From: Hyalangium minutum
GTDB lineage: Bacteria > Myxococcota > Myxococcia > Myxococcales > Myxococcaceae
Assembly (NCBI RefSeq): GCF_000737315.1
Contig: NZ_JMCB01000003.1
Coordinates: 217,394 to 281,393, forward strand
Direction of reading: 5' to 3'
Length of the DNA stretch: 64,000 nt
Shown here: in pieces, positions 1 through 46,302 of the stretch
How positions within the stretch are numbered: position 1 is the first letter of the stretch
How the letters are laid out: each line of letters opens with the position of its first letter
Notes under the pieces: model-generated
The model's input: the letters and a program-made list of their open reading frames with translations, nothing else
Databases searched by the model: none
What the model was told of the DNA's origin: nothing
Program-made: the position numbers and the translations under genes

Positions 1-1
1 C

Positions 2-21000: not shown

Positions 21001-24000
21001 CACGACGCCGCCGCAGTTGGCGTGGGTGTTGCCCATGGCAGGGACCAAGCTCATCGGCGGCGGGCGCTACCCGTTGCAGGTGTCCGCCACGGACCTGAAC
21101 GGAGTGGCCGAGGTGTCGTTCCGCATCGATGGCCAGCTCGTGGCGACGCGGACGGCCCCGCCCTGGTCGATGGACTGGGACGCGCCAGCGGTGACGTCCG
21201 CGGGGACCCGCCTGCTCGAGGCTCGCGCGCGAGATGCGCAGGGCAACGAGGCCGGAGCCAGCCAGACGGTGACGGTGGCGCCGCCCTCGACTTCACGGCC
21301 CACGATCGTGCTCGATGGGTTTTCTACTTCTTACGGCTACCCCGAAGGGACGGCGGTCACGGTCCGAGCGCGTGTGACGTCGGAGATCCCGCTCCAGAGC
21401 GTGCGCCTGTCGCTGGGAGCGGAGACGGTGACGCTCACCCAACCGCCCTGGCAGCTCACGTTCGTGGCACCGCGAGTTCCGCCGCCCTCGCAACTGGTGA
21501 GGCTCCGCGGCACCGCGGTGGATCTCCTGGGGCGCGAGAGCTTCCCTGTGGAGTACGACGTCACCGTCCAGGACGACGGGCGGCAGCCCGTGCTCGCGCT
21601 GGACATGAACCCGCAGGGCCCTTCGCTGCTGGGCGGTTCCACGCTCCAGGTGGGGGGCCTGGATGGCGGCGTCCTGACAGGCACGGTGGTCCGCGTGAGC
21701 GAGGTGCTCCAGCCCGCCGAGACGGACGGGGGCTACACCCTGCCCTTCGAGCCAGAGGCGGCGCCTGTGCGCGTGTCCGCGCGAATGGATGCGTGGGACG
21801 GCGGCATGGTGACGCTGGAGCGGCAGGGCACGCTGACGGCCTTTGCCAACGGTGCCACGGTCTCGGTCGCGGCCGCGGACGAGCCCGTGCTGGATCTGGC
21901 CACCTCCGGGCCATGGGAGTGGGTGGCCCGCGATCAGAGCGGTGGGCACACGCGCCTCGAGCTCCGGGATGCGGCCACTCAGGCCCTCACGGCCGAGCGC
22001 TCGCTGGACGGGACCGCGGTGGCCGTGGCCTTTGAGCGGGGCCGGGCCGTGGTGGCGCTGCGCACCGGAGGGCGCGGCCGGGTCGACATGATGTCCGTGC
22101 CTGCCCTGGAGACGGTCGGCTCGTTCTCCGTGCGCAGAATCCCCCGCGCACTGGAGACCACTTCCTTCGGTCTGGCGATCGGGACGGACGAGGGCCTCGA
22201 GCTGTGGAGCAGCGGGGGCATGCTCGCCTCGCGACTGCCCCTCGGGGACGTGCTCGGGGTGTCCGCCGAGGGTGATCGCCTCGCGGTGCTGACGAACAGC
22301 ACCTTGTATGAAGTGGATGCGAGCGTGCCGCATGCTCCGGCGCTCGTGGCCTCCGTGCCTGTGGCAGGAGCCACAGGGGTGGTGGCGCTCGCGGATGCCC
22401 GCAGGTGCGTGGTGGGAGCCACGGCGCGGTGCTTCCGCGTGGAGGGAACCGCCTTGACGCTCCAGGGTGAAGCGCGGCTGCCGGACACGGCGATCGCCGC
22501 CGACGGTCCGGGGCCGTGGCTCCTGGCGGGCACGGCCAGCGGTCTGTCCGTGGTGGATGCGCGGGGAGCTCCCTCGATGGCGGGGTACTACCCGGCACTG
22601 GCGGGGCGGGTGGCTGCAGGGGACGGCCGCATCGTCGCGGCGGCGCCGGGCCGCAGCTCCCTCCTGAAGCTGCGGCGGAGCGTGGGAGCGCCCACGGTTC
22701 ACCTGGAGCTTCCTCCCTCGGCGGCTCCTGGCGCGCGGGTGCCCGTGGTGGCCAGCGTGGAGGGGCTCTCGGACCCTCGGGATGGCTACACGGCGGAGCT
22801 GCGTGTGCGCGGCACGGCTGTCCAGGTGCTCAAGGGGCGGCTGCCGCAGTCCGTGGATCTGCCGCGTGACGGCACGGCGGCGCAGGTGGCCCTGCGGGTG
22901 GTGGATCTCGCGGGCCATGAGGCGCTCGCGCAAGGAACCGTGGCGCTCGTGGATGATGGGGCGGGCCCGGCGCTGGCGGCGCTGCAGGCGCGGGCGGAGG
23001 TGCCCTCGGGCGCCTTCTTCTCGCTGGCGGCGGTCCCGGCGGATCCCGCGCGGGTGGCCTCTGTCGAGTACTCCGTGGACAGCACGGTGCTGGGACGCGC
23101 GGATGCTCCGGCGCTGGCTTGGCGGCTGCGGGCTCCCACGGTGTCCACGGACACGGCCTTCACGGTGAGCGCGGTGGCATTGGACGCGCAGGGCCGCCGG
23201 GGCGCGCCGGTGCAGGCCTCGGTCTGGGTGCGGGCAGGAACGGGGGCGGCACTGCCCACGGTGTCCCTGGCGCGCGTGGGCACCGGGTCGATCCAGGAAG
23301 GCACGGAGGTGAGGGTCCGGGCCACGCTCACGCCGTCGGTCCCCGTGGCCGAGGTGCGCTTCAAGATGGACGGAGAGGAGCAGCAACGCCTGATGCTTCC
23401 CCCGTATGAGGCGGTGCTGCGGATGCCGGTGGGAACGGGCTCGCGCGGCGTCACAGTGGAGGCGGTGGCGGTGGATGACCAGGGCCGCGAGTCGGCCGCC
23501 GCGCTCCTACCGCTCACGGTGGTGGATGACCTGACGCCTCCGGTGGTGGCCCTCGAGGTGGATCCCTCGGGAGAGGTGCTGACAGCTGGGAGCCGTGTGC
23601 GAGCCACCGCGATCGCGTCCGATGGAGGAGCGCTCGAGTCCTGGTCCGTCCGGGCGCTGTTGGCGAACGTGGAACTGGCCAGCGGAGGTGGCCGGCTGGA
23701 CTTCACCGTGCCCGCGAGCACTCCGGCCGGGACCTTGGTGGAGATCGTCGCCACGGCGCGGGATGTGGCGGGCAACGTGGCGACGAGCCGGGTGACGAAG
23801 ACGGTGCTGGCCCCCGTCCTGCCCGACGGCGGCGTCGTGGTTGCCGGGGACTTCGTGGGAGCGGACCGCCTGACCCTGCGCGGGGACTTCGTCTATGCGA
23901 CGACCCCGAGAGGACTGGCCGTGGGGCGGGTGCGGTGGGGAGAGACGCCCACGATCGAGCCGGTGAGCTTCCTCGCCACGGACGTCGCGCCTTCCTCGTT

Positions 24001-27000
24001 GGCGGTCCAGGGCCCGTGGGCGGTGCTGGTGCTGCCAGGGAGAGGGCTGTCGATCGTCAACATCGCGGATCCGGCGCAGCCCCGGGTGCGCGGCACGCTC
24101 GCGGGCACCTTCACCAAGGCCCTGGCAGGGGATGGGCTCTATGTGCAGGGGAACTCCCTTTTCGAACTCGATCTGGAGGTGCCCTCCACTCCCGTGCTGA
24201 GGAACATGGCGGTATCGGCAACGGCGGTGGACGGCACGGCCGACGGGGTCGTCTTCAACTCCTACTCCTACCTCATGGTCCGCGCGCGGCTGACCAGCGG
24301 CCTCAGTGGCTACCTGTCGCTCCTGTGGCCCGTGGGAGTGCCTCAGACGGCTCGCTGGAACGATGGGAAGCTGCTGGTCGGGACGGATCGCTCTCTCGCC
24401 GTGCTCGTCCGCAGTGGGGACAGCCTCGGCGTGGCCCAGGAGGTACCGCTGCCCGCGGGGGTTCGCGCCATGGCCGTGGCGGATGGCCGGGTCTGGCTCG
24501 CCTGCACGGACGGCAAGCTGAGATGGGTGGACGTCCGCAACCCCACGGCTGCCCAGGTCATCGCCCAGGAGGCGCTCCCGGCCCGTGCGCTCGAGGTCTC
24601 CGGAGGGTTGATGCTCGCCACGACGGCGCAGGGGATCTTCGTGCGCCGGCTTCCGAACCTGGGCGCGGCGGGCAGTGCTCTGAGTACCCCGGTGGGAGGT
24701 CTGACCCTGGATGACGCGCCTCGGGCGGTGACGTCGTTCCGGCGGGGCGTATTGGTGGCGGCAGGGCTCGCCGGCGTGCAGCGGATCGTCCTGGACGATC
24801 CTTCCCACCCCAGCCGCGTCTCCCAGTCCGTGGCGGGGTTGGCCCTGAAGCAAGTCGAGCGCACGGGCGAGCAGGTCTTCACCCTGAATGGCACGACGCT
24901 CTCGATCCACGTGGAGCAGTGGGATGGAAGCCTGGTGAGGGATGGCGGTGCCTCGGATCGGCTGGCGGCGCTCGGCAGCGTGGAGCGCTTCGCCGTCTCG
25001 CCGAGGAGGCTGTGGGCGGTGTCGGGAGGCACGGTGTCCTCGATGGGGCTGCCCTCGGTGGATCAGAAGGTGTCCCTGCTGCTGGGCTCCGCCACGCTGG
25101 ACGTGGCGGGAGACGAGACGCGTGCCGTGGTGGCCCTGGGCCGCGCGGGCGCGGCGGTGGTGCTGGTAGATGGCGCGGGGACGCTGAGGCTGGGCGCGAT
25201 GATTCCGGAGGTCCACACGGACGCGGTGGCGGTGGACGGCGACCTCGCGCTGCTGGGAGGCCCCTCGGGCTTGGCGGTGGTGGATCTCAGCGCTGCGAGC
25301 GGGCCCGTGCGCCGGGCCTCGCTGCCCACGGCGGGAGCGGTGCGCCGTGTGAGGCTGGAGGGGCGGCTGGCCCTGGTGAGCGAGGGCTCGGCGGGAGTCG
25401 AGCTGTGGAATGTCTCCCAGCCCGCCGCGCCGGTGCTCCTGGGCAAGCTGTCCACGCCGCGCGCCGAGGACGCGGTGGTGGCCGCGGGGCACATCGTCGT
25501 CGCGGACAGTGTGGCGGGCGTAAAGGTCTTCTCCCTCCCCGCGGCTGGGGTGAACCCGGTGGTTCGGGTGGTGCCGGACGCGTCCAGCGTGGAGGCGGGG
25601 TCCTGGCTGGAGGTCTCGGCGCGGGTGTCGGGCGTGCAGGTGGATACGGCCGAGCTGCTCGTGGAGGGGCAGGTGCTCAGCCGGATGGACGAGCGGGCGG
25701 CGGTGGGCCGCTACCTCGTGCCAAAGCAAGCGGTGGTCGGCCGAGAGCTGGCGGTGCAGGTCCGGGCGCGCACCGCCTCCGGAGCCGAGACACTGTCGGC
25801 TCCGGTCTTCGTGAGGGTGTCAGCGCCCACGAACCTGCCGGAGATCGTCCTCTACCCGAACTCGCCCAACTCCGGCTGGTCGTACTACTCCGCGAGCAGC
25901 ATCTCCGTGTCCGCGGTCTACGGGGGGGCCCTGGCCCCCGTCTCGGCGCGGGTCCGCTGGGCGGGACAGGACCTGGGAGCGCTGACGGTCATGGACACCT
26001 CCATCCATGGGGAGCTGCGCATGCCGGTGGTGGGAGCGGACACGACGGGGACGCTGGAGTTCGTGCTCGTCGATGCGGCGGGGCGGATCAAGACGGCCTC
26101 CGTCCCGTCCATCAGGGTGCTGGCTCCCCAGGATCCGCTCCCCCAATCCGTCTACGGGCTGCCCTCCCGCCTGTACTCGGCGCCCTATGACAACGCCTTC
26201 ACGGCTCAGGCCTACTGCTACACTTGGTGCAACGTGCGCGTGGAGCGCAATGGCGTCACCATCGCGAGCACCCTGAGTACCTCCCCGTACACCGGGTGGC
26301 GAAGCCTGCCAGTCTCGCTGGTGCTTCCGGGAGAGACCACTGGAACGCAGCAGACGCTGACGATCGTGGCCGAGGACTCGGCAGGCCGTCAGGTCCGGCA
26401 GGAGCAGCGCTACACCGTGCTCCGGGATGATCTGGTCCCGTCGGTGTCCCTCTACGCGCCGTACTCCGCTTCCGAGGGCGCGACTGTCTCCGTCTCCGCC
26501 TACGCCTCGTTCCCACCGGGGCATCAGATCCGGTCGCTGCGGTTGTTGGCCAATGGGGTCGAGATCGCCTCCGTGGTGGGCCCCACGCTATCGGGCGTGC
26601 CCTATACGTTCCCCAGTGTCAGCGTCACCTCGACCGTCCGCTTCGAGGCGATTGCCACCGATCACCTGGGGCGCGAGGGACGCGCGGAGCAACTCGCCCA
26701 GGTTCTTCCAGACGCGCCGCCCAGCGCATCTATGTATGCGTCCCCAACGCCTGTGCAGGGCTACCCGATCTACGCGTGCATCAATGCCGCGGATGACGTG
26801 AGGCTCACGGCCGTGACCTTCAAGGCGGGAGAGGAGACGTTGTGGAGCTGCACGAGCGGCTGCTCGGCCTACTTCTCCACGTCCTTCTCCAAGTGCGTCC
26901 AGAGCGCGTCTCGCTACACAGGGAGCGAGATCGTCCTGAGCGCGGAGCTCACCGACAGCGTCGGCCATACTGTCACGGAGACGCGGCCCTACGCGGTGGC

Positions 27001-29857
27001 GCAGAACCAGCCGCCGACGGTGACGCTAACGTCCAAGAGCTATCTGGTGGCCGGACAGGGGGGGACCCCTGTGTACGCGAGTGCCTATGATGAGGCCCAC
27101 ATGCAGTCGCTCAAGGTGCGGGTGGGCGACACCCTGATCGCGCAGAGCACCTCCTCCTACTATGCCCAGAGTGGTCTCTCCTGGAGCGGTTCCTACACGC
27201 CCAGCTCTCCGGAGTCGTTCGTTCTCGAGGCGGTGGCGGAGGATGGGGCGGGCCTACAGACCGTCCTGCGCAAGCAGGTGCCTGTCTTGCCCGCGGGGTC
27301 GGGGCAGAGCTGTGAGAAGCCCGTCCCGATCGGCATGGACCTCACGCTGAGGCCGCCTCAGGTGCAGCTGCAGAGCACGTTCTACTCGCGGTGTGGGACC
27401 TTCTATACGGGCTCGTGGCACACCCTGCCGTTCGACGGGCCCGTCGAGGAGATCTCCTTGAGGGCCTATTCCGACTCTTGGTACTGGCCAACCCTCATCG
27501 TGAAGGACGGCTGTGACGCCTCGGCGGCGCAGTTCTGTCCATATTCCTCGTCGTCTTCCGATGTCTCCACGCGCGCCACCTCGCTCTCCTCCCAGGCGCG
27601 TGTCTTCCTCTCTCAGGTCACAGGGGACGTTTATGTCTCCTTCGCCCGGCTGGGCATGGGCGCCCGGTGCATCCCGGGCTCTACCTCCGTGGTCTGCTCC
27701 AACAGCGTCTGCCGTGAGCAGAGCAGTGGTGAGTACCGATGCGCTCCCGAGGCCTGCAGGGATGGCCTGGACAATGACGGCGATGGGCGCGTGGACTTCC
27801 CAGCGGAGCCGGGCTGCACGTCCGCGACGGACGACGACGAGACAGACCCCGTGCCGCTCCCCACCTGCGCCAACGGGGTGGACGAGGATGAGGATGGGGC
27901 CATGGACTGGCCGGCGGAGACGGACTGCCCCTCTGCCTCCAGCAACGGGGAGCACCCGACCTCCTGCCAGGTGACGCCGCTGACCCTGCTGGGCTCCCGC
28001 ATGCGGATCGACTTCTCTCAGGCCTCGAATCTGGACGATCTGGTGTGCAGCACCTCCGGCTCGGGGCCAGACCAGGTCGTGAGGGTGGAGGTGCCAGGCC
28101 AGGCCTCGCTCTCTGGATCGCTGATGGAGCCGTACGGGTACCCAAAGACGCTGGCGCTCCGAAAGAGCTGCACGGACGGAGGAGCGTTCCTCGCCTGTGC
28201 TCCGGCGGAGTGGCAATCGGTTTGGGATGATGGACGTTGGGTATCTCAGTCTGTGGCCATGACGAGCGCGGAGGTGGGGCCCGGCTCCTACCTGTTCGTG
28301 GCGGACTCCTCGCTGCCCACCGGGTACGGCGCACCCTTGTTCCAGGTCCAAGGGCAACTCGCGGCGGACCAGCCCTGTGATCCGGCGCAGCCCTGGTTCG
28401 CCTGTCAGCAGGGACAGCGCTGCCTACCCTCGGTGGACGGTTACCAGTGCCAGGACGCCGCATGCGCCAGCGCGCAGGACGAAGATAGCGATGGGTGGAG
28501 CGGCTATCCCCAGGATCCGGGCTGTACGTCGCCGGATGATCAGGACGAGTCGGACCCCGAGACTGCACCTGCCTGCTCCAACGGTGCGGACGACGACGGC
28601 GACGGGCGTACGGACTGGCCAGCCGATCCGGGCTGCAGCTCCGCCTCGGGGAACACCGAGTCGGGAGATGGCGAGCGGTGCGAGGCACCTGCGGAAGTGA
28701 CTGCATCCACCACGGTGGTGGACTTCTCGGAGGCGGCCTCGGACGAGACGCTGCTCTGTGATGCCCGGCCTGTCGGCGACAAGGTGTTGAGCGTCCGGAT
28801 GCCAGGGGCTGGCACCATGGTGCTCACTTCCAGCCCGGAGATCTCAGCGCTGGCGCTTCGTCCGGCCTGCGCGGAGGAGCATGCGGACGTGAGATGCCTC
28901 TCGACCTTGACGGCGCCCTTGTACACCAAGGTGCCGTTGGAGGCAGGGGCCTATTCGATCGTGCTCAAGGGGACAGGGACCGCGACGCTTCGAGTCTCGG
29001 GCTTCTTGAATCACGGCGCTGGCTGCGATCCCGCGATGCCTTGGTTCAAGTGCGTGGCTCCGGCGTCCTGTACCATGGGCCCCACGGGCGCCACCTGCGT
29101 CGCTCCGGTGTGCTCGAACGGGCTGGATGACGATGGCGATGGCAAAGTGGATTTCCCGTCGGATCCAGGGTGCAGCTCGATGTGGGATATGGATGAGTCG
29201 GATCCTCCGGCGACTCCCGCCTGCCGTGACGGTGTGGACAACGATGGAGACGGGCTCACGGACTGGCCCGTCGATCCAGGCTGCGAGATCCGGGACGATC
29301 TGGATGAGGCCGATCTCTCCACGCCTCCTCAATGCTCCAACGGTGTGGACGACGACGGTGACGGCCTGATCGACTACGGCTCCGATCCGGAGTGCTCCAG
29401 TGCGGGCTCGGACAGCGAGGGTCTCTTCCAGGGCGTGCTGGCACAGCACCTGTCCTCGCAGACGTCCGGCTATTTGCCCTTCACCGCCACCAGCCGGCTC
29501 CCGCTGATGACCTGCTTCGAGTCCAACCGGGAGCTCAAGAAGGTCTTCCAGTTCGTGGCGCCCAATACGGGGCGGTACATCATTCCTCCCAGCTGGCCCT
29601 CGGGCAGAGTGCGGTTCTCCGTCGACGTGGTCGGGCCCGACCGGGGACAGATCATCTGTGCCAACGACTCCGCGCAGCTGTCGCTAAGACAGGGGGACGA
29701 GATCATCGTCACTGTCGGAGGGGATGACACCTATGGTGGGAATGGCACCGGCGGGGTGATGCAGATCCACTTCATGTACTCTGAACCGCAGCAGATCGTC
29801 TCCCCATGGCTCCCACCCCCTGAGCTCGATTGGCAGTGGACGGGCGTCATCCCATGA
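2..29857 (+). CDS. Giant modular surface/adhesin-like protein, 5'-truncated by the window edge (more than 9,938 aa in window). It has tandem bacterial Ig-like domains, seven beta-propeller(LVIVD-like)+Ig+2xIPT/TIG supermodules, and a Cys/Asp-rich Ca-binding-like C-terminus.
   Basis: A single uninterrupted frame runs from position 2 to TGA at 29855-29857 and stays open upstream of the first in-frame GTG at 41. Repeated ~100-aa units have the pattern D.PP.V.L.P...DDVAV..VEF.VDG...PY...W, which is Ig/Big-like. Fourteen IPT/TIG-like motifs (G.GF.PGA.V.FGG.PA) occur in seven pairs. LVIVD-like repeats are present (LRVLDVRDP..., LAVVDLSRPAQP...). The C-terminus has CxNGxDDDGDGxxDxPxDPGC repeats. All antisense ORFs there are compositionally junk. 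Confidence 0.85.
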   Translation: MPGALLLEGLPHTVSLTSGDARSGTLSPQDFQLVRYYADGALLGTVRTPRVEMRNLEEDPTEPPEYVAVPLWELSYVPRAGTAGTVVALYAEAVDARGATARGATILVRIARDGPPLVTLRSPSGPRVQATAGRPVQLTGLVEDDTVTLGVELSLLVDGAQVSSTRLVGEGLGGTRAGSAPFSISWTPPVSSIGRLVRLQFMARDVGDHESRASLEASVVADAPPQISLQTPPPGSQVLAGTTQFLTASVVDDSAGPVEVTWRVNGVPVGASRSPPYRTSWSVPTSAAGSTLQLQATARDSTGNEAQASGELFVVSDTTRPSISLVVPRPLAEVPETQDLVVSVAGQDDATVKKVEVLLEGEVLATDDDPGPNGTQLGSFLTHTLVRSAQLMGRQQIRLGARAYDASGNVGSAPEVLVKVLPDAPPTVRFVLPAANTRATIGTPLELIAEADDDVAVSSVEFFADGNSSCRATLPPYRCTITVTGPARTLHLRAVASDAGGRSSSAEVAVQVSEDREPPLVAFRSPSEGSFTFAGRNLSVEVAASDDVGVRDVRLELDGQTVGTQSGGVVDGLYRLFRWQVPIPAGAAGHTLAFKAVATDTSGLTRERLLEVRARRDEAPAVSLTSPAPNSFYKEGEDVRLVVTVADDEGVIGLVGLSGGRRQGTLAQSGPLLDVSRPQALTVRAPSIFRGEPPTVGAEARDTAGQSGVATVMLNVARDLEPPSALMISPLPPATGHLRVNEGGAFSLRVEVEDDVRVVRVAAVVDGQELPVVNGREPLGPQNERFEEVRVQDPVMPGQIIVSRRYLGTFAGTASLAQYSVGLHTLAARAYDAGGNATTTPALSFEILEVQDLAPPRVTLTLEGGPDERTCVAGAPMKLRVSATDDVSIREASVTFEGQPVTIRNPPERSPRNWQEEIPFQFPPLGTGGRRTVTFLARVTDGAQHTGVVSRTCELTPDGPPQILVVSPTARAALTEEGTEPVQVDVSDDVGVRRGLRVLSTSAVAVPGIGSFEVTATAAHEGLGVPSATLIPGDGPGFSVEALEGRLLISPPGEGQGTGTTAPGRLRLNVEPSPAGHGALAQVRFRYVVKPGHEGSTALQSFRSAFPDGVGSVTLSAPAFSADLSFPSQDIEMEEVDIQLSKASANAEELAVTRLGLRGWGTPQLQLRAEAAGERVAVQRWNTGVAPSRPGQVKRIDEAVWLPRGQAPRDSQLTVLAEDVAGLVGRVAIPIVARTDTDPPTASIVSPGNGASVVEDTVFEVQVSAQDNARLDQLELWVDGQSRQVMRVGPGPSGSPQAHRFSLSLPLPASGYPAALSVVARDGAGNATASDTAYVRVIPDVAPSVTFQSLTSAVESFTRTELDSGYVVMLQGVPATLGMLLEDDAGLASMRVQFGDQVVKEESFTGAPLTAGRQVTFTPPVGRDGAPVVLLVSLTDSAGHTRQTRLLIESRRPRPPALALAAPTPGATIAEGSIQLLFDAVAVDDTGVDHVQLFINGQPALILTRGEPIAWNLDPQSGAVVVADPALRQAVASLPPEDQDLQRLRHYRGQVKLPPGFVALVPGRTDAALQLRTIAADKEGHETVLDQPLRIEADVATPLVEVLRPVLGRNVVEGTSVLVEVSARDNVLVDRVEILAGPSASELRVVHTAGGFPPTNAVPGSPFDVYAPLVQYAFTVPTLAQLGSTVPVPYFVAARARDISGNWTAPADFVIQPIEIIQDQPPGVSILSPADGTPAVANSTITVSVMAEDDVAVGNVRLEVDGTPLPVTLHAPPFSFHVPVPDRAGELRLRAVAVDSGGHQVGSQVVILPLRDDLAPTVAVAQPRPEARLTEGRDFALVVAAQDDVAIRSVEVLVEGGLAGPLRLVASNLPYSFRVPLPPGSAGRTLRIVARARDSAGHESVAPEVTALAVADTSRPTVAWLRPAAGSQALEGSVVELEVDARDDVAVNSLELRLNDQPLAIMPTPPFRMTYHVPAQGGGQALVFSAIARDPSGNQTVETRRLEIAEDEPPSVSVIAPTRLVVGNPALLRAQASDDVAVTEIGFHVGSDPAALSEVARRYQLPYEFRYAATEADVGKVLTIRGRAMDLAGHEAWSVPVQALVVPDTPPTVAVRKPLAGEAIFEGQRLRLEVEATDVEGPIKQVAFFVDGRKVHVATTPAGIPGSPNLFATSYSPPVGSGNRLLRITAVAVDSANQETESAPVVVGTVRDTVPPETQLVDPMVWELVTEAEPVEWTAAALDESAVVGVRFLVDGQQVGPPSTVPRPGPSNRPLYYGTWLPPSGAAGQTRTLTAEATDPSQNVGRAEPVTVELGMRPEPAVELVVEPYARRQAGMAADGEGLVIHGALLKDVPLPPPNDTVKRDEGRLALARLDLNGLAPLGTVKVTGSPVSQTLLGRLALVAMGPVFDPVGKKTIPAQLQVVDLSNTAVPRLRGVVDLPSDDVHQVVARDRLAFVANGTSGVAVLELGNPDAPQRAFTRPTVGPARGVAVTDQWLLVAAGSGGLRVLDVRDPYLRELGFVALPGEANRVEVVGSRAYVGCSNAQAPLAVVDLSRPAQPRLMSLLSHAPRRPDLLASEVTDVAVSGGVALVTTAITDQDAEPVKGILSASTVKADGAASTFVRANLPGARDVLFSQGRPVALLGDSAMGAFTLPRLAVTDVSPVDGTGQVPPTAQVTVTFSRLLQGASVTEQTVLLRAQDAVLGPVVPATVTVNETRILVAPRAPLPTNTEIFLTVLPTVTGEGGVTLGERFVSRFRTSPVDGLPPQVADVQPPAGPVDGGTRVRVWGLHFAPGARVLFSGQEATQVQVAADGRSLDAVTPPNLEGAVVVTVVNPNGLEGSLLGGFLYLQILDVSMVVPATGSLAGGNLVELSGSGFQRGATVRFDGVPATDVRVLSPGRISLRTPPGHFGTVDVRVDNPDGRYVVKPDAFLYSNLVVSRVLGRHIPDPQYDGPIRPAEKLPQGVPRAVVMQGGLAWLLSDGTAALQAHSPEELLQDSIQAAVTLVDVSDPDNAAVRSGVSIAPPYQPRALAVRGTTAYVAADAAELPYVDVVGEGGPSLLVVDASVLQAPRMVTAVPFEGTARAVAVADDLALVAAGAGGLAVFSVADPLRPVLTGSIQSMRVRGEVRAVNVVDVAASGRYALVRAGTNAGTFTLVLDLATPGIEVVGEASDLGPMALQGRRGLTLGNGQIRTLSFSPPTWPRNLVGMSSLVGGTPVTVAVGPHVGAAGTEVSRPGNSGSGKLEVSLSADPSRPRAVDAVDLYPAARFGGVAVERDVAVISISALLTKKGEVVADPTLALGSDGLAVVRMPFLMGMRSQPADGDTEVPPSTPLRLEFNREVAGASPQTVRLIRQDGSVNGVVEPAEIQTLGRTVLLLPAQPLAPSTTYRVVADQLTDALTRAEMAGPFYLEFSTASSSAAMPVSISGLTPREGPAAGGTLVTVTGTGFEPGATVRFGGVPATQVTVSEDGTQLTARTAANTAGAATLEVTNPSGSVARRLGAFLFTQPLSVLAAAPGRGPASGGTRVILSGTGFSSTGTVQVRFGGVPALRTRVLGLNRLEVYTPRGLRGTVDIQVTNPDGSQATLEDGFIFDQPGGASVALSDRPVDVVVIGDSALVLQRGGLSVVDLSGLYLKGPLKDTPIPPDLVDGLVDVDNDRKDDRLVSFLPIPDALSLAYPSTWGHRLFVGTGGWDSKLQQWTAGEVLEVAIADLAHPAISARTAAVEGPVFGLDVKDERLLAATGQKGLSSFDRSYAPFLVGQLPMQGAAQSVAGSAGMAVVGVGQRDATSFAVSAGALRIVSTEASPSLRGALPLNIQRARWKGDVAVVAAGDAGLVLVSAANPDQPQVLASVLVGGFAWDVRLQGNLAYVAAGTAGVAVVDLTDLLHPRVLYHVTGARGGTAKLVEMTAGGRLVSMRDRGTQGWSVDFGRPSELAVVSASVAPDEVVPLSLPSVTVTLSAGLLHTSAPEAFSFTANGAPVPGTLEAGTPELPVSTLVFRPSEPLPSGAELRLALGTSLRSLLGDALIAPFEVRFFAAGGTGERPQLLQVVPRVGPSEGGTEIELLGTGFVPGTTVRIGAAPALVLSLSSTRMTVRVPPGEPGLADVVVVHPSGVTARRSGGYFYSAPLFASASIPRFLNPKGGSTVRVTGRGFLPTWSSPLGSTRVLIRGLPARSVSVESTTQLVAVAGPGSFGDADVELVAADGLQRASSPSPVGYGLPFSGKVVGASVRPVALAGNPALPLLPFAAAGASVEGNTFPQPYTGPMTGGGLVPESFRMVAYDVTRVGRPELAGASVVDPPDHDVDYLIGSLPYLAQRELPLPEVELMPDSFDVALRGTQLLVANGASGLAVIDASGTTLEQWPLLGRGGIGSVLGQEYATRLLATPTGAWVFSNPLEDNLLPEEIPCKSPTDEHYPAAGSGGQLQLFDTRSPSDPVLLGSIGSGSAQEPYGATVAGGRLLVAMGNHAGVIYCTETPFPPPPWASLTTGRRTRFLGLDPSDDYRSEDAPIIMMKTPHGALELYDSAGVGAQRLARRPYPYSLTDVVVVRDVAIASAAEFGLIFFDVRPDNPQAPQELLRLPFDQSLSNTPGHPERLRLIGDLLFVAASSGSVYVLDVSDPRHPEFLSGGNTEFAYDVLPVGDRLMLASRQELTELSMPFLLPLSTTPERDALVPPSLSQLEVRFNRPLAPATVNDISVQLIGPSGPVPLELSVVAEHATLTYAVRAQLPEEGLEPGATYEVRIASTVADQRGGGMIRPFRTAFRTGAAGSHAPRIDAVQPSAVSMAGGQQVVIQGSGLSGVASVRIGGATASFTAAGDTELHVTVPPSTRPGPADVRIEDAGGPWSLLPHGVLYLSPLASAHASLVPDHGPVEGGTEVKVSFSGASPVAPGTRVFIGDREGVNVDVVSLSTLRFTTPRPDGPGLVPVKLERPGEVSETVGYFSYDLPTGTTVDLPGFPPRETSEVVLSGDLLFAGVPTAGYEGLELFNIRVPEHPVRLGGLRTEGAVRGLDARGALALLATDAFGLVAVDVQDTARPFTVGRGATAGLATGIRLEGNVAHVSVTQMDGGAGYVQTFDVSQPSLPLLSTTPLTEDALALDHAPGRFYALTSNVRTGQPDGLRLTVYTRQGQRLGGVVVDATPRSYAELVRSRLTVRGGRAYVTLGSRLYVFDMSDETAPQVLQSTELGAPARGLTWAGGSLLVSTTGSSTLVTVPPTDLLVVGTSPVNGALASPLTSIRVDMSLPVREDTVTAGTFEVVQVGSAGPVPVPGHREVVFATRGSSLVFTPEDPLEPGAQIEVKVEGVLGFDTRPLAHPASFAFTVAGEDALQPWVERLEPASGLFTDFTATTVRGAGFRQGVTVRIAGQNATVVSVQEDQLGIVVPPSLTSAGPASVEVIDPSGLSAVRLGGFLYREPLRLALLSPDRAPQQGGVAVELRGTGFMPGLVVRFGGTGSFQVDVPSMERAVAVAPPHAQGLVDVEAVLGSQSAVKARSFLYGTGAVSRLPTPPVRDVRVEGTVAYVALGGETEIVGLDAEGHLITLEQRRKTDSGGLMVADLSEPTVAREIRRVNVSAQGGVRRMARAGNTLYLAAGSAGVVAVDVSQPANASETLRLSVQGEAVDVVTAGSLIFVADGSGVRVFRTGETEQPMLVAQRALPGGASALALYGGLLLVSNASATDARLYVLDARRGDLAPLAQEAHLPLSAPARHIAVEGTRAFVSLGRAGQVAIVELADPTAPAPAGTLVLKDELHQGWTSAEQTLVAGDVVWVAGGGGKVQRFAALVGQQPQWLETASVLGDAKALARSGRYLMAGTLLLDVNGRPVEMPLADTRDAAGTLTGGLVSVALDHLELRGTVPVAGAVVQVGVVPEVLLSALPDMATAGAVRLEGTDGVEVRVARQGRADTEGGRLALIPQSPLAVGTDYVLRVGGTLADLAGRPLGTDVGVRFRTGPIASPEQPVITAMSPVTGLEAGGDTAVLTGEGFMPGCQVWVGDTLASGVTVSSDGGRITLIVPPGPAGAAAVRVRNPNGLEALQLGLYRYLVAPELTQVSPAQAPFNSRQRVVLTGKGFAATTQVTFGGRPALHPVMDSQGRISVEVPDDVTGVVEVAVATPMPGGALVARRPDGFTYTLKPLGGVGGNTEALAVAGRVLLAARAGRLVAFDLTRPGDLPEVANVPGVTSAGGLVVSGDEAWLAGQGEVVRYALEGCGAGLPVSCPLQVVERIPLVASGVASVAAGQGSAYVTVAGGSDVVLLGRVDGATRVVAQVNVGPGVVRGVAMAGPVLAVLVQGSQSSRLELRDVADGSLTLVGEVPGLYWTVNRLAAEGTRVAVASGAGVRLYETAEPAVPVELGRFEGQGSAYTVALSGPWALASGDFGLAWLDTTQGLKRRTSGSTYGWAGNVAVGAGVAVAASAYELRAFELPYPTVTGQEPSPGGALPREAAVSVTLADRLPPSVVQGTAMELVGPAGAISGTRTVQGSAVLFRPSAVLTPGERVQARVTLGATPYVGGTVLGPWTWSILPSAEAPSLRVDALVPDHGDVSGGYPVVLAGAGFDAQTQVWFGTRAATVVPPVSTDAIHVLAPASPVPGPVRVRVSPGVAGTPVDVPGGFVYLAPLAISRVTPPRVDLGGGAVTVEGTGFNRSLTARLGGLVAPVSDFTPTSFKLSVPAGPSGWLALEVAQAGTPPVTLAQAVLRADGVAPTVTAWEPLDTVGTGQVPLNSIFTVRFNEPIDPATATHVRLVRQGGTVPESGTHTVAPDGLSVTFTPAAALPSTTAFTLSAAGVADLFGNAIANTAAARKDFRSRDVVPPNVYVRLESSTEPLAPGTLLAAEVSWSFRVVASDDSGQVSLRQLWVDGAAVSVDWDGKATYRWPAIMSSRPSTLKVRAEDSAGNGTESEVTVQVVEDMPPTVAITQPSTPVVQVEQGVSLTVALAASDNHGVSAVELRLDGVPIKRASSLTGTNATLSHVLYLPTQGTYQLTALAMDDRGQLTSSESVSVQVLPDTTPPQLAWVLPMAGTKLIGGGRYPLQVSATDLNGVAEVSFRIDGQLVATRTAPPWSMDWDAPAVTSAGTRLLEARARDAQGNEAGASQTVTVAPPSTSRPTIVLDGFSTSYGYPEGTAVTVRARVTSEIPLQSVRLSLGAETVTLTQPPWQLTFVAPRVPPPSQLVRLRGTAVDLLGRESFPVEYDVTVQDDGRQPVLALDMNPQGPSLLGGSTLQVGGLDGGVLTGTVVRVSEVLQPAETDGGYTLPFEPEAAPVRVSARMDAWDGGMVTLERQGTLTAFANGATVSVAAADEPVLDLATSGPWEWVARDQSGGHTRLELRDAATQALTAERSLDGTAVAVAFERGRAVVALRTGGRGRVDMMSVPALETVGSFSVRRIPRALETTSFGLAIGTDEGLELWSSGGMLASRLPLGDVLGVSAEGDRLAVLTNSTLYEVDASVPHAPALVASVPVAGATGVVALADARRCVVGATARCFRVEGTALTLQGEARLPDTAIAADGPGPWLLAGTASGLSVVDARGAPSMAGYYPALAGRVAAGDGRIVAAAPGRSSLLKLRRSVGAPTVHLELPPSAAPGARVPVVASVEGLSDPRDGYTAELRVRGTAVQVLKGRLPQSVDLPRDGTAAQVALRVVDLAGHEALAQGTVALVDDGAGPALAALQARAEVPSGAFFSLAAVPADPARVASVEYSVDSTVLGRADAPALAWRLRAPTVSTDTAFTVSAVALDAQGRRGAPVQASVWVRAGTGAALPTVSLARVGTGSIQEGTEVRVRATLTPSVPVAEVRFKMDGEEQQRLMLPPYEAVLRMPVGTGSRGVTVEAVAVDDQGRESAAALLPLTVVDDLTPPVVALEVDPSGEVLTAGSRVRATAIASDGGALESWSVRALLANVELASGGGRLDFTVPASTPAGTLVEIVATARDVAGNVATSRVTKTVLAPVLPDGGVVVAGDFVGADRLTLRGDFVYATTPRGLAVGRVRWGETPTIEPVSFLATDVAPSSLAVQGPWAVLVLPGRGLSIVNIADPAQPRVRGTLAGTFTKALAGDGLYVQGNSLFELDLEVPSTPVLRNMAVSATAVDGTADGVVFNSYSYLMVRARLTSGLSGYLSLLWPVGVPQTARWNDGKLLVGTDRSLAVLVRSGDSLGVAQEVPLPAGVRAMAVADGRVWLACTDGKLRWVDVRNPTAAQVIAQEALPARALEVSGGLMLATTAQGIFVRRLPNLGAAGSALSTPVGGLTLDDAPRAVTSFRRGVLVAAGLAGVQRIVLDDPSHPSRVSQSVAGLALKQVERTGEQVFTLNGTTLSIHVEQWDGSLVRDGGASDRLAALGSVERFAVSPRRLWAVSGGTVSSMGLPSVDQKVSLLLGSATLDVAGDETRAVVALGRAGAAVVLVDGAGTLRLGAMIPEVHTDAVAVDGDLALLGGPSGLAVVDLSAASGPVRRASLPTAGAVRRVRLEGRLALVSEGSAGVELWNVSQPAAPVLLGKLSTPRAEDAVVAAGHIVVADSVAGVKVFSLPAAGVNPVVRVVPDASSVEAGSWLEVSARVSGVQVDTAELLVEGQVLSRMDERAAVGRYLVPKQAVVGRELAVQVRARTASGAETLSAPVFVRVSAPTNLPEIVLYPNSPNSGWSYYSASSISVSAVYGGALAPVSARVRWAGQDLGALTVMDTSIHGELRMPVVGADTTGTLEFVLVDAAGRIKTASVPSIRVLAPQDPLPQSVYGLPSRLYSAPYDNAFTAQAYCYTWCNVRVERNGVTIASTLSTSPYTGWRSLPVSLVLPGETTGTQQTLTIVAEDSAGRQVRQEQRYTVLRDDLVPSVSLYAPYSASEGATVSVSAYASFPPGHQIRSLRLLANGVEIASVVGPTLSGVPYTFPSVSVTSTVRFEAIATDHLGREGRAEQLAQVLPDAPPSASMYASPTPVQGYPIYACINAADDVRLTAVTFKAGEETLWSCTSGCSAYFSTSFSKCVQSASRYTGSEIVLSAELTDSVGHTVTETRPYAVAQNQPPTVTLTSKSYLVAGQGGTPVYASAYDEAHMQSLKVRVGDTLIAQSTSSYYAQSGLSWSGSYTPSSPESFVLEAVAEDGAGLQTVLRKQVPVLPAGSGQSCEKPVPIGMDLTLRPPQVQLQSTFYSRCGTFYTGSWHTLPFDGPVEEISLRAYSDSWYWPTLIVKDGCDASAAQFCPYSSSSSDVSTRATSLSSQARVFLSQVTGDVYVSFARLGMGARCIPGSTSVVCSNSVCREQSSGEYRCAPEACRDGLDNDGDGRVDFPAEPGCTSATDDDETDPVPLPTCANGVDEDEDGAMDWPAETDCPSASSNGEHPTSCQVTPLTLLGSRMRIDFSQASNLDDLVCSTSGSGPDQVVRVEVPGQASLSGSLMEPYGYPKTLALRKSCTDGGAFLACAPAEWQSVWDDGRWVSQSVAMTSAEVGPGSYLFVADSSLPTGYGAPLFQVQGQLAADQPCDPAQPWFACQQGQRCLPSVDGYQCQDAACASAQDEDSDGWSGYPQDPGCTSPDDQDESDPETAPACSNGADDDGDGRTDWPADPGCSSASGNTESGDGERCEAPAEVTASTTVVDFSEAASDETLLCDARPVGDKVLSVRMPGAGTMVLTSSPEISALALRPACAEEHADVRCLSTLTAPLYTKVPLEAGAYSIVLKGTGTATLRVSGFLNHGAGCDPAMPWFKCVAPASCTMGPTGATCVAPVCSNGLDDDGDGKVDFPSDPGCSSMWDMDESDPPATPACRDGVDNDGDGLTDWPVDPGCEIRDDLDEADLSTPPQCSNGVDDDGDGLIDYGSDPECSSAGSDSEGLFQGVLAQHLSSQTSGYLPFTATSRLPLMTCFESNRELKKVFQFVAPNTGRYIIPPSWPSGRVRFSVDVVGPDRGQIICANDSAQLSLRQGDEIIVTVGGDDTYGGNGTGGVMQIHFMYSEPQQIVSPWLPPPELDWQWTGVIP

Positions 29858-30723
29858 GGCCCTCAAGCGGAATAGGCAGCTGGCTCGTGTTGGCCCTCGC
29901 GGTGCTGTCCGGGTGCGATGACTCGCGAACGGTGGCGAAGGTGGGGCGCACGGGCCTGACGGTGGAGGACGTGACGCAGCTGCGCGCCGCGCAGAGCCCG
30001 AGCGTCCGCGCCGCGCCGGAGCAGACGCTGGAGGTGCTGGTGGATCGCGCCCTGCTGGCCGAGGAGGCCCGGCGCCAGAAACTGCACGAGCAGCCCACGG
30101 TGAAGGCCCAGCTCGCGGCCGCCGAGCGGGAGCTCCTGGCGCATGCGGTGCTGGAGCGGGCGGTGGCTCCCAGCGTGACGGACGAGGCGCTGCGCGCGCG
30201 CTACGAGGCCGCGCGCTCCCGGCTGGAGCGCCGCGAGGTGCACGTGGCCCAGATCTTCGCGCGGATGCCCGAGGGCTCTGATGAGAAGACTCGGCGCCAG
30301 GCGCAGGTGCGCATCAACCAAGCCTATGCCCGGCTCGCGGGCGGAGAGCCTTTCGAGACCGTGGCGCGCGAGCTGTCCGAGGACTTGGTGAGCGCGCCCC
30401 AAGGAGGAGAGCTCGGCGTGGTTCGGGAGGGAGGAGTGGATCCAGCGTTCTTCGCCCAGGCCGTGGCGCTGGCCGCAGGCGCTTGGTCCAAGCCGTTCAT
30501 CACGCCCTTCGGCTGGCACGTGGTGAAGGCGCTTGAGGCGTCGAAGACGGTGGTGCCCTCCTTTGATGAGGCGAGAGGTGTGCTGGAGTCCGAGGCGCGC
30601 CAGGAGGCCCAGGCGAAGCTGATGGAGCGGCTGCGTCAGGAGATCTCGGTCCGTCGCTACCCGGAGCGGCTCAAGCTGGCAGAGGAGAAGAGCAAGCCCC
30701 AGGGCGAGGGGGAGGCGAGATGA
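29854..30723 (+). CDS. Peptidyl-prolyl cis-trans isomerase, parvulin (PpiC) type. It is a PrsA/SurA-like foldase lipoprotein.
   Basis: The ATG at 29854 overlaps the TGA of the giant gene (ATGA). The N-terminus MRPSSGIGSWLVLALAVLSGCDD is a signal peptide with an LSGC lipobox. The C-terminal parvulin signature is PFITPFGWHVVKALE. A SurA-like N-terminal chaperone region rich in A/E/R helices is present. Confidence 0.85.
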   Translation: MRPSSGIGSWLVLALAVLSGCDDSRTVAKVGRTGLTVEDVTQLRAAQSPSVRAAPEQTLEVLVDRALLAEEARRQKLHEQPTVKAQLAAAERELLAHAVLERAVAPSVTDEALRARYEAARSRLERREVHVAQIFARMPEGSDEKTRRQAQVRINQAYARLAGGEPFETVARELSEDLVSAPQGGELGVVREGGVDPAFFAQAVALAAGAWSKPFITPFGWHVVKALEASKTVVPSFDEARGVLESEARQEAQAKLMERLRQEISVRRYPERLKLAEEKSKPQGEGEAR

Positions 30724-33700: not shown

Positions 33701-36700
33701 GGTGAGGGTGACGGTGAAGGTCGAGTCCTCCGCGCCGCTCGACGAGGTGCGCATCGGCACGGGCATCGCGGCGAACCTGGGCTCGGGCCAGTACACGGCC
33801 CAGGTGCCGCTGGCGCTGGGAGAGAACGTCATCCCCGTGAGCGCGCGGGACACGCTGGGGATGACGGGCTCGGCCACCGTGCGCGTGCGCTACCGCGATC
33901 CGAGCACTGAGCCGTTGACCGTGACGGGGGTGGATCCCTCGGATCAGGCCACGGAGCTGGAGCCGGACACGCTGGTGAACGTGGCCTTCAACAAGGCCGT
34001 GAAGCCTGCGTCGGTGCGGGCGGGCTTCACGGTGAGCGTGGAAGGGCAGCCGCTGGCGGGCGGCTGGTCCGTCGCGCACGGAGCACAGATCGTCTCCTTC
34101 ATTGCGCGCGATCCGCTGCCGGAGGGCGCCACGCTGCAGGTACGGGTAGCGGGCGTGGAGCCGGTGCAGGGGCCGGGGATGCAGGGCGAGTTCCGCAGCA
34201 TGTTCACGGTGCGCCGTCCACTGACCCGGCTGCGCGGCCAGGTGGTGGACGCGCGGCGCGAGCCCGTGTCCGGCGTACGGGTGGAGGTGGAGGGCCAGGG
34301 CCTCTTCACGCGCACGGGAGCGGACGGCAACTGGGCCCTCTTTGGGGTGCAGCCGGGGCAGGTGGTGCTGCGCTACGAGGGAGGCGCCTCCTCGGAAGGG
34401 CAGGTCTTCCCCACGGTCCGCCGGCGGTTCGCCGTGGAGGCCGAGCGGGACAATGAGGAGTCCACCGTGGTGCTGACGCCCGTGGACGCCGAGTCCGCGG
34501 AGCCGGTGGATACCTCCCTGCCGCTGCACCTCACCTTTGGGGGGAGGCATGGGGCGCTGGAGGTGGACATCCCCGCGGGGGGGCTCATTCTCGAAGGAGG
34601 ATCGACGCGCGGCCTGGTGACGCTCACGCAGCTGCCGCTCCACTCGCTCCCGGTGCCCACGGAAGGCGCCTTGCGCCCGGTGGTGGTGTGGCAGCTCCAG
34701 CCCGCCGGGACGCGCCTGGTGCGGCCGGTGGTGCTCCGCCTGCCCAATCGGCTGAGTGCGCCGCCCGGCAGCCGGGCCGCGCTGTTCACGTATGATCCCG
34801 AGGCGCACCGGCTGCACATCGCGGGGCTGGCCACGCTCAGCGCGGATGGCACACAGCTCGTGTCGGACGGTGTGCTCGAGGCCGGCTCGCTGGAGTACTT
34901 CGGCTACCTGCCGCTGCCCGAGGAGTCCTCCGTCGCGCGGGCCGGGGCCGTCTCTCCCCGTGTGGCGAACCTGGGCCCGCTGCCCCGGCCACCGTCTGAC
35001 GGGCTCATCCGCCCGCTGACCCAGGGCTTCGGGCTGGATCCTGGCAGCGCGCTCGCCATCTGGGACTCCTACCAGCCCTTCATCGCTCCCGCCGCCGTCA
35101 TGGGGACGGTCCGAGGGCCTCGCGAGCAGGCGGTGGCCCTCGATCTCTCCTCGCCGAGCCTGGGCGAGTCGCGGCGGGTGGCGTTGGATTCGCAGCTGCG
35201 CTACCGGATGCCGCTCTCGGTTCAGGCCCGCTCGCTCTATCCCCTCTCGAGCAGTGGCCGGGATTCGCTCGTGCTGGCCCTCGAGGGCGTGGGCCCCGAG
35301 GGACAACGGCTGGGGCCGCCCAGCGGGGGCTCCTGGCGGCAGGAGAGCCCCCAGGGGCAGCGCGCGGAGCTGTCCACGCAGGTCGAACTCTCGCTCGGGA
35401 CCAGCTCGCTCTGGGCCACGGGCACCACGGCGCGCGGACGCAACGTACTCCGGCTGAACGCCGAGCTGTCCCTGGCGGATGGAGGCGTACCGGATGGGGG
35501 CGCGACCTCGGGATTGCTGCGCGTCCAGCGGGGGGATGGAGGCTCGGCAGGAGGGGAGGACAGTGAGGGACTGGTCCGCTTCGCGGGCATGCCTGTCCGG
35601 GTGACCGATGGCTGGCACGAAGGAGGGTCGATCTCCGGCCCGGCGGGCCGGTATGCCGCCTCGATCATCATGCTCCAGTCCTCCTGGATCCCTCCCGCGT
35701 CGGTCCTGGCCTGTGTTCGCCTGCCCATCGGATGGAACGTCCAGAGCTGGGTGGCGTGGGATGGCCGTGTCCGCACGCGCAAGGCCCCCTCCACCGCGGA
35801 GGAGTGCTCGGGCCCCTGGGAAGTCCTGGCCTGGCCTTCGCCCATCATCCCCGACATCGACGTGCTCGTGGATGTGCGGTGGTTGCACGGCAACATCACG
35901 TTCGTGGATCGGCAGGGCGAGCCGCTCCCGCCGCCGTGCAGCGACTTGGTGGTGCGCCAGGGCACCGAGGTGACCGGGCTGTCGCAAGACGCCGTGCGGA
36001 GCACGGAGGTTCACTTCTTCCGGGAGGATAATCTCTCCACCCCCATCGTCAGCTACGCCGTCGCGGATCCCGAGCAGTGTGACTCGTATCCGGGGGCCCC
36101 GCATGGCCGCTATGCCAAGGTCCGCTACGGTCCCTCCACCCTGAGCCGCGTGGCCTCGCGCCGCGACAGCCAGCGGTTGCTCCCGGGGGACCGGCTGGTG
36201 GTGTTCGCCGTCAACCATGCCACGGGCTATTCGGGCATGGAGGTCGTCACCGTTCCCTCCGTCAACCAATCCTCTCGCGCCGAGGATGGGAGCTGCCCGG
36301 CGGATGACGCCGCGGGCGGCCCGATGGCCGTGCAAGATGGGAGTCGCACGGTCTCCGTCTCTCGCTGCACGCTGCAGGATCTCGGCATCGAGGCGGATCT
36401 CAAGCTGTACCCGCCGGAGATCGACGTGCGTGTGGAGCGCCAGTCTCGGGCCGAGGGATCTTCCCAGGAGGCCCTGGAGCCCAGCCTTGTCCGCCATAAG
36501 GGCGCGGCCACGACGCGGGACAACTTCGTGAGCGTTGCCACGCACTGGCGCGTCCGGCGCCAGCCCGCGCGCTCGTGGGATCCGGGGGTGTTGCCTCCCG
36601 TGAATTCTTCCTGCGAGGGCGGGAGCCAGGCGGCTGGAAGCACCTGTGCGCCCCAGATCCTCCTGGACGAGGGCCCGCGAGGCACATGGGCGGAGCACTA

Positions 36701-46247: not shown

Positions 46248-46302
46248 GGCACCGGAGACTACCCAAGGGGTCGCTCGCCGTCATGCCGCTCTTTCAGGTA
46301 GG

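Follow-up and report, generated by a model that had tools for sequence, protein, structure and literature searches.

We analysed a 64,000-nucleotide window of the Hyalangium minutum genome (approximately 70% G+C), and in particular gene B, which encodes a small predicted lipoprotein with one parvulin (peptidyl-prolyl isomerase, PPIase) domain. Gene B sits between two much larger genes on the same strand: gene A, whose product is an exported protein built of immunoglobulin (Ig)-like repeats, and gene C, whose product is an Rhs lipoprotein (Table 1). An earlier note on this DNA had described gene B as coupled to both neighbours through ATGA overlaps, and both overlaps are there: ATG 29854 overlaps the TGA of the gene A frame, and the TGA of gene B overlaps ATG 30720 of the 4,682-codon gene C frame. 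The same note placed gene B between two giant proteins, and both frames are indeed giant, with the qualification that gene A runs off the left end of the window and its size there is a minimum. The start of the gene A open reading frame (ORF), GTG 41, is merely the first start codon in the window, so the 9,938 amino acids (aa) counted from it are likewise a minimum.

Table 1. Coordinates of genes, domains and motifs in the window
Feature	Position (nt)	Strand	Basis or detail
Gene A, Ig-repeat exported protein, 5'-truncated by the window	1..29857	+	Frame open from base 2, at least 9,951 codons
Gene A, Cys/Asp-rich modules	Starts at 27755, 27866, 28574, 29111, 29222	+	Motif positions
Gene B, predicted lipoprotein parvulin chaperone, 289 aa	29854..30723 (ATG at 29854, TGA at 30721-30723)	+	ORF translation
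Gene B, signal peptide and lipobox L18-S19-G20-C21	29854..29916 (Cys21 codon 29914-29916)	+	Translation
Gene B, N- plus C-terminal (NC) chaperone domain, N-terminal part: hairpin aa 26-36; helices aa 37-46, 55-74, 81-108, 110-119	29917..30225	+	AlphaFold secondary structure, Foldseek
Gene B, parvulin (PpiC-type) domain, aa 125-228	30226..30537	+	Pfam; alignment to E. coli SurA P1/P2
Gene B, long C-terminal helix, aa 237-263, completing the NC chaperone domain	30562..30642	+	AlphaFold, Foldseek
Gene C, predicted Rhs/YD-repeat lipoprotein toxin, 4,682 aa	30720..44768	+	Pfam, translation
Gene C, DPSGL motif, aa 4178-4182	43251..43265	+	Sequence reading; context NPLTYLDPSGLW
Gene C, pretoxin HINT domain, aa 4394-4525	43899..44294	+	PF07591, E 6e-23 and 1.7e-24
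Gene C, C-terminal toxin domain, 156 aa, deaminase-like; HAE aa 4610, PTCKLC aa 4638-4643	44298..44768	+	Motifs, MafB19-deam
Ser/Thr protein kinase gene, convergent, ending 12 nt past the gene C stop	44781..46247	minus	Pkinase, E 2.5e-31

The gene B product begins with the signal peptide MRPSSGIGSWLVLALAVLSGC, which ends at Cys21 of the LSGC lipobox, and this cysteine is preceded by a hydrophobic stretch and Arg2. Cys21 is kept in at least 90% of homologues (alignments A1, A2 and A3), and the lipobox indicates that the protein is anchored rather than soluble. Both motifs that had been read from the translation are therefore in place, LSGC at residues 18-21 and GWHVVK at residues 220-225. The product matches P0001, 'peptidylprolyl isomerase [Hyalangium minutum]', with 100% identity along 278 aa. 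The public annotation of the gene starts at GTG 29887, giving 278 aa and thereby losing the charged n-region of the signal peptide. We consider ATG 29854 more likely than GTG 29887 to be the true start because homologues of 285-289 aa align from residue 1, because it supplies a charged n-region and because it better fits the ATGA coupling.

A single parvulin domain, as previously proposed, is clear from Pfam: Rotamase (PF00639) matches aa 134-226 with E 1.2e-18 and 68.3 bits (cut-off 21.7), and Rotamase_3 matches aa 125-228. The SurA-like helical region that had been proposed alongside it stays below threshold in Pfam (SurA_N_3, E 0.035, 14.4 bits against 27.2) but is recovered by structure prediction. 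An AlphaFold model built on 17 homologues (mean predicted local distance difference test score, pLDDT, 87.9) starts with a short beta hairpin that leads into four N-terminal helices; the parvulin domain comes next, followed by a long helix on the C-terminal side. Searched against PDB with Foldseek, essentially the full length of this model matches PEB4/Cj1289, HP0175, PrsA and SurA, with E from 1.6e-13 to 1e-7 over approximately 265 columns. The best matches are PEB4/Cj1289 (3rfw, E 1.6e-13, 265 columns) and HP0175 (6bhf and 5ez1, E approximately 1e-12), and the PrsA structures matched come from Bacillus, Listeria and Streptococcus (4wo7, 6vj4 and 5htf, E 1e-10 to 1e-8, approximately 260-280 columns). 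TM-scores against the PEB4/HP0175-type structures are only 0.36-0.48, which is most likely explained by differing domain orientation. Structurally, the assignment of gene B to the PrsA/PEB4/SurA type holds for the predicted model: an N- plus C-terminal helical chaperone module with one inserted parvulin, to which the lipoprotein signal peptide adds the remaining element of a PrsA-type architecture.

Architecture aside, gene B belongs, by profile scores, to none of the named families PrsA, SurA, PpiD, NifM, EpsD or PpiC. The PrsA equivalog models score far too low (NF002827, 39.5 against 343 bits; NF002846, 33.9 against 361; NF000809, 66.9 against 303), as does the SurA equivalog (NF008038, 47.2 against 394 bits), and SurA is further contradicted by the one parvulin domain and the lipobox. 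EpsD (TIGR02925) reaches 29.3 of 108.9 bits (E 6.3e-7), and the neighbours here are Ig-repeat and Rhs genes; NifM (TIGR02933) reaches 28 of 168 bits (E 1.6e-6). The NCBIfam equivalogs for PpiD and PpiC likewise score far under their cut-offs.

The canonical parvulin tetrad, known from the Pin1 and Par14 structures, is Asp/Cys-His-His-Thr/Ser. Alignment to E. coli SurA P1/P2 and relatives places the gene B tetrad at D177, Q135, H222 and T217: Asp177, Thr217 and His222 are kept, while the first position of the dual-histidine motif reads VAQIF as opposed to SHIL and RHIL, so the tetrad departs from the canonical one at Q135. Among 17 close homologues, position 135 is His in 10 and Gln in 7, and His222 is invariant. 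With Q135 in place of the first catalytic histidine, isomerase activity is uncertain. Substitutions of the first parvulin histidine are tolerated in Pin1, and the chaperone functions of SurA and PrsA are independent of PPIase activity. Of the two activities that had been suggested for gene B, foldase or holdase, the sequence thus leaves prolyl isomerisation uncertain and makes a holdase role at least as likely.

To place gene B in its genomic context, we used 21 loci with relatives at 43-100% identity: the window, genome loci L001-L012 (found by exact look-up or genome scan), L087 and L088 (metagenome look-up) and L089-L094 (metagenome scan). The metagenome scan used an 11-sequence alignment and returned 11 loci, 6 of them informative. 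Together, the 21 loci span Hyalangium, Stigmatella, Melittangium, Cystobacter, Citreicoccus, Corallococcus, Myxococcus and uncultured lineages. Searches with A, B and C using tblastn found a C-like Rhs gene directly after gene B in 20 of the 21, and in 17 the stop of gene B overlaps the start of the following long open frame by four nucleotides ([AG]TGA). Gene B is therefore tied to one specific exported partner, the kind of client linkage for which PrtM, discussed below, is known. As a control, we used 71 loci that the same scan had given for more distant parvulins, and in none of them do giant open frames abut the parvulin gene. Together with the 20 loci, this bears out the co-occurrence with giant genes that the earlier note had put forward as a check.

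An A-like giant lies directly upstream of gene B in at least 10 loci, and the ATGA overlap between the two genes is found in the window and at least nine others. Three loci of Myxococcus type (L003, L006 and L088), however, lack gene A and still have B linked to C. The proposal that gene B serves both giant neighbours consequently survives in part: its link to giants is real, but its conserved partner is the downstream Rhs gene alone, and the Ig giant is dispensable. Within Myxococcus the distribution of gene B is patchy, with only some species and strains carrying it. Two loci deserve separate mention. In L007 (M. dinghuensis), gene B is followed at 10831..16198 by small genes, including one for a Gmx_para_CXXCG family protein, and this may be a decayed toxin locus. 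In L009 (M. xanthus AM003), B and the C-like gene are separated (10849..15437) by a 150-codon frame followed by an additional RHS-repeat gene of 1,406 aa, which suggests rearrangement or duplication of Rhs modules.

A word-indexed search showed a cliff from 47% to 35% identity, as would be expected if gene B belonged to a tight, isolated family, but an exhaustive profile search did not bear this out and returned a continuum of lipoprotein relatives aligned over their full length. It yielded approximately 55 more cluster representatives that score above 200 bits and are 32-50% identical to gene B; almost all of these are 243-304 aa long. Most of them carry lipoboxes, many share an N-terminal C-x-D-x-x-V-V-A-x-V-G motif, and in the six metagenome loci of this type whose context was read, an Rhs gene was found in all six. 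We therefore dropped the isolated-family argument and shifted its weight to gene context.

Orthologous loci show gene B as part of a larger operon. In Stigmatella sp. ncwal1, the order is a divergent SurA_N-type parvulin (308 aa), a parvulin that we call parvulin-1 (298 aa), a trypsin-like lipoprotein (548 aa), A (9,740 aa), B and C. Archangium primigenium has the same order, with 316 aa for the divergent parvulin, 273 aa for parvulin-1, 543 aa for the protease and 10,034 aa for A; Citreicoccus has it without the protease; and Myxococcus-type loci consist of the divergent parvulin, parvulin-1, B and C. The window does not reach the 5' end of the Hyalangium operon, the order of which we infer from Stigmatella, Archangium and Citreicoccus. 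These orthologous loci have three parvulin genes: the divergent one, which we call the core gene, parvulin-1 and B. Parvulin-1 is a second cluster-specific parvulin lipoprotein (273-300 aa) at the start of the orthologous operons, and in Stigmatella and Archangium it is followed by the trypsin-like lipoprotein protease (543-548 aa), which has PPC-like repeats. Parvulin-1, together with the protease where there is one, lies at 5310..7849 in L084, 5246..7801 in L086, 6932..7786 in L085 and 9081..9980 in L003. Lipoboxes or signal peptides in the orthologues mark the products of the cluster as exported.

In a neighbour-joining tree, the three parvulins fall into three clades, with 100% bootstrap for B and 100% for parvulin-1, and the divergent parvulin groups with a broad family found across the Myxococcota, Anaeromyxobacter and Vulgatibacter among them. 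Phylogeny had been named as a check on whether gene B is dedicated rather than housekeeping, and the separation of its clade from the Myxococcota-wide core family speaks for the former. The three also differ in their catalytic histidines: the core parvulin keeps both, parvulin-1 has lost both (to Arg and Ala/Ser), and B is intermediate. M. stipitatus has the core parvulin with the same flank (aminotransferase, CmlA_N/metallo-beta-lactamase and APS kinase) and without parvulin-1, B or an Rhs gene. This marks the cluster as an accessory insertion next to a housekeeping parvulin gene. At least one such canonical SurA_N-type parvulin lipoprotein is present in H. minutum outside the window (P0201, 308 aa, 30% identity to B, recorded on a contig of equal length, 1,229,042 bp), and Stigmatella, Archangium and Citreicoccus each have one as well. 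Gene B is thus neither the only SurA-like gene of its genome nor conserved in gene orders unrelated to giant proteins, the situation that the earlier note had said would speak against a dedicated role.

Gene C begins with a lipoprotein signal peptide (Cys22, LATAC), and the lipoboxes of its orthologues read LAAGC, WAAGC and TLAGC. Pfam then gives, in order, Big_13, seven Glucodextran_B, Big_5, a CarboxypepD_reg-like domain, a blank stretch of approximately 1,240 aa, DUF6531 (E 2e-8) and RHS repeats (RHS_repeat, E 1.3e-46). The blank stretch (aa ~1220-2458, 34320..38090) has no Pfam match at E 0.1 or better. We take the DPSGL motif, as in Rhs proteins generally, to be the usual end of the Rhs shell and site of autoproteolysis. 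At the very end of the protein, the MafB19-deam match has E 1.2e-4 and is under the Pfam cut-off. With a DUF6531 plug, RHS repeats, a DPxGL shell end and a variable C-terminal toxin, gene C is predicted from its sequence to be a giant Rhs polymorphic toxin of Sec/lipoprotein type. By the same features, it is a putative member of the class of large signal-peptide Rhs proteins that act in T6SS (type VI secretion system)-independent kin discrimination in M. xanthus and whose export is unexplained (PMC10433427). We found no plausible same-strand ORF for a cognate immunity gene directly downstream of gene C; such a gene may be located at another site, or kin may not be the target of the toxin.

We also considered gene C as a possible teneurin-like protein (TLP), a group with a superfold of FN-plug, NHL propeller and YD-shell, and did not assign it there. 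Its segments gave no NHL match (scanned at E 0.1, except for aa 3301-4380, scanned at E 0.001 only), and the TLP published for H. minutum is another protein, of 2,032 aa (PMC13018210).

The gene A product carries many Big_7, TIG, Big_5 and LVIVD repeats by Pfam, and proline makes up 8% of it. Its orthologues are 9,679-10,034 aa long with type-I signal peptides at the start. The last ~1,000 codons (26000..30000) have no Pfam match and a lower G+C (0.66 against 0.72). Five Cys/Asp-rich modules (C..G.D.D.DG..D.P.DP.C) occupy the C-terminal ~700 residues, where they flank beta-rich domains of approximately 150-230 aa, and from their sequence they look calcium-binding.

We consider it moderately probable that gene B is a client-dedicated periplasmic holdase or foldase for the Sec-exported giant Rhs toxin, rather than a housekeeping protein, with gene order as the basis for the client link. 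The analysis shows the sequence features, the fold, the gene order with its overlaps, the separate clade and the presence of other parvulins in the same genomes; from these we infer the periplasmic location of gene B, its client relationship and the balance between holdase and isomerase activity. The chaperone would be made from one transcript with the Rhs lipoprotein encoded directly downstream, by translational coupling, an arrangement that has persisted over deep divergence. This 4,682-residue lipoprotein, and probably also the Ig protein of approximately 10,000 residues, would leave the Sec translocon unfolded, and the membrane-anchored chaperone would capture unfolded segments of these very long beta-rich chains. 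It could then keep them soluble, guard them from aggregation and proteolysis, and help the Ig-like arrays and the YD shell to fold in an ordered way, ahead of placement in the outer membrane or at the surface. Parvulin-1 probably works with it, and the trypsin-like protease, where present, may process a client. Gene B belongs to an accessory cluster that adjoins the core parvulin gene and comprises parvulin-1, B and the Rhs toxin, with a trypsin-like lipoprotein protease and then a giant Ig protein as optional members between parvulin-1 and B.

Several observations weigh against such a dedicated role. L007 is the lone exception to the pairing, with gene B present and no Rhs gene. In the profile search, similar lipoproteins of 265-300 aa form a continuum that reaches down to approximately 36% identity, and six contexts were read among them. 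Judged by its active site, enzymatic foldase activity of gene B is doubtful, as the dual-histidine motif is incomplete both here and in 7 of the 17 close homologues. Finally, conserved adjacency of B and C is also compatible with co-inheritance in a mobile or accessory island.

Taken to its conclusion, co-inheritance would make gene B one more envelope chaperone/PPIase paralogue, ordinary and redundant, which serves many clients and merely hitch-hikes with a giant-gene island. Myxobacteria do have several PrsA/SurA-like parvulin lipoproteins, the gene B family grades into many similar metagenome lipoproteins, and L007 retains gene B in the absence of the Rhs gene, all of which would be expected of such a paralogue. 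It would not readily account for an Rhs gene kept directly downstream in 20 of 21 loci across several genera and 43-100% identity, with the four-nucleotide overlap in 17. Nor does it sit well with the distinct clade formed by gene B, its patchy presence within Myxococcus, or the canonical core parvulin that adjoins the cluster and persists without it. We therefore regard hitch-hiking as unlikely.

A different client is also conceivable: the upstream Ig protein could be the main one, with gene B serving prolyl isomerisation of its Ig-like domains and the Rhs gene being incidental. However, the linkage of B to the Rhs gene is kept where A is absent (L003, L006 and L088), and among the loci examined none has A and B without C, so we judge this improbable in spite of the ATGA overlap that joins A to B in the window and at least nine other loci, and of the proline content and Ig-like domains of gene A. 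Pilins are linked to Ig-like folds. Those of E. coli are cited as dependent on SurA (PMC3307742), which we count in favour of an Ig client.

It is improbable that gene B acts after folding, as an adaptor for lipoprotein sorting or surface exposure, in processing by the cluster protease or in toxin release, with its parvulin as a non-catalytic binding module: the degenerate active site (Q135), the loss of both histidines in parvulin-1, the lipoprotein protease of the Stigmatella and Archangium operons and the lipoprotein nature of all partners would suit such a role, but parvulin chaperones have no known precedent in sorting or release, the fold of gene B is that of general holdases, and the protease is absent from the Citreicoccus and Myxococcus-type loci.

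The dedicated-chaperone reading can be extended to the whole cluster, which would then be a self-contained, T6SS-independent apparatus for assembly and delivery of a surface-displayed Rhs toxin, with the two cluster-specific parvulin lipoproteins, whose active sites are degenerate, as obligate assembly factors and the Ig giant, as a fibre of ~10,000 residues, forming a stalk or adhesin that presents the toxin. The optional trypsin-like lipoprotein protease and the Rhs lipoprotein toxin of ~4,000-5,000 residues would complete the apparatus. We offer this only tentatively and think it rather doubtful. If true, myxobacteria would have a contact-dependent antagonism system of a kind not described before.

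By analogy, the closest functional precedent for gene B would be PrtM of Lactococcus lactis, a parvulin lipoprotein encoded alongside its one specific client, the envelope proteinase PrtP (PMC3307742). Both are PrsA-like lipobox proteins with one parvulin domain and tight linkage to a large exported protein. PrtM, however, is plasmid-borne, belongs to a Gram-positive, serves a protease and has a client requirement that was shown experimentally, whereas gene B has a diderm host, is coupled to an Rhs toxin and has a client deduced from gene order, and the likeness that we draw between them is one of arrangement. PrsA of Bacillus and other Firmicutes shares with gene B its size, lipoprotein nature, NC chaperone domain and single parvulin. 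It is a general foldase, essential in B. subtilis (PMC3307742); gene B differs in belonging to an accessory cluster and in its PrsA score (39.5 against 343 bits).

The best structural matches of gene B, PEB4/Cj1289 of Campylobacter and HP0175 of Helicobacter, are only approximately 20-22% identical to it, and PEB4, HP0175 and Par27 of Bordetella are all single-parvulin SurA-like chaperones of the Gram-negative periplasm. Par27 binds a very large exoprotein, filamentous haemagglutinin (FHA), and features in papers on FHA secretion. To our knowledge, all three proteins are soluble and none is encoded together with a client; gene B, in contrast, encodes a lipoprotein with a conserved, client-like neighbour. 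SurA of E. coli shares the fold of the chaperone module, and the gene B parvulin aligns best to SurA P2 (E 2.8e-14). It is, however, a soluble protein with two parvulin domains that works through BAM on the beta-barrel proteins of the outer membrane; gene B differs in its one parvulin and its lipid anchor.

NifM and EpsD share a concept with gene B, in that each is a parvulin inside, and presumed specific to, one gene cluster. For NifM that context is nitrogenase, and for EpsD it is exopolysaccharide/PEP-CTERM loci. The T6SS Rhs chaperones of EagR/DUF1795 type resemble gene B in being encoded by an accessory gene directly upstream of an Rhs toxin gene, and the EagR type is needed for that toxin only. 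Their fold is unrelated to that of gene B, and they are cytoplasmic and serve T6SS-loaded Rhs proteins without signal peptides. Gene B, in contrast, is predicted to be exported and is proposed to serve a giant Rhs protein of Sec/lipoprotein type.

In full-text literature searches, no paper turned up that connects Rhs or polymorphic toxins with parvulins or PPIases, and a 2026 paper on bacterial teneurin-like toxins mentions immunity genes and no isomerase (PMC13018210). Client-linked PrsA-like parvulin chaperones are a known kind, and what would be new is the client class, the Sec-exported giant Rhs toxins of myxobacteria. How Rhs proteins of approximately 4,000 residues cross and fold in the Myxococcus envelope is unexplained (PMC10433427), and a chaperone gene coupled to such toxins across genera is a concrete candidate for an accessory factor in that passage. 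The locus also offers a natural series of parvulins (canonical, lacking one histidine and lacking both) which could separate chaperone from isomerase function. For finding related loci, we suggest as a marker a 270-300-aa lipoprotein with the N-terminal C-x-D-x-x-V-V-A-x-V-G motif and one parvulin domain. Such a marker could find the 45-50-kb loci even when assemblies are fragmented and, as is usual there, the giant genes are broken up.

Elsewhere in the window, a YhgA/Transposase_31-like gene (46186..47517, E 1.7e-22) contains a 12-bp tandem repeat in 10.5 copies (47223..47348), which encodes (AEGK)n.

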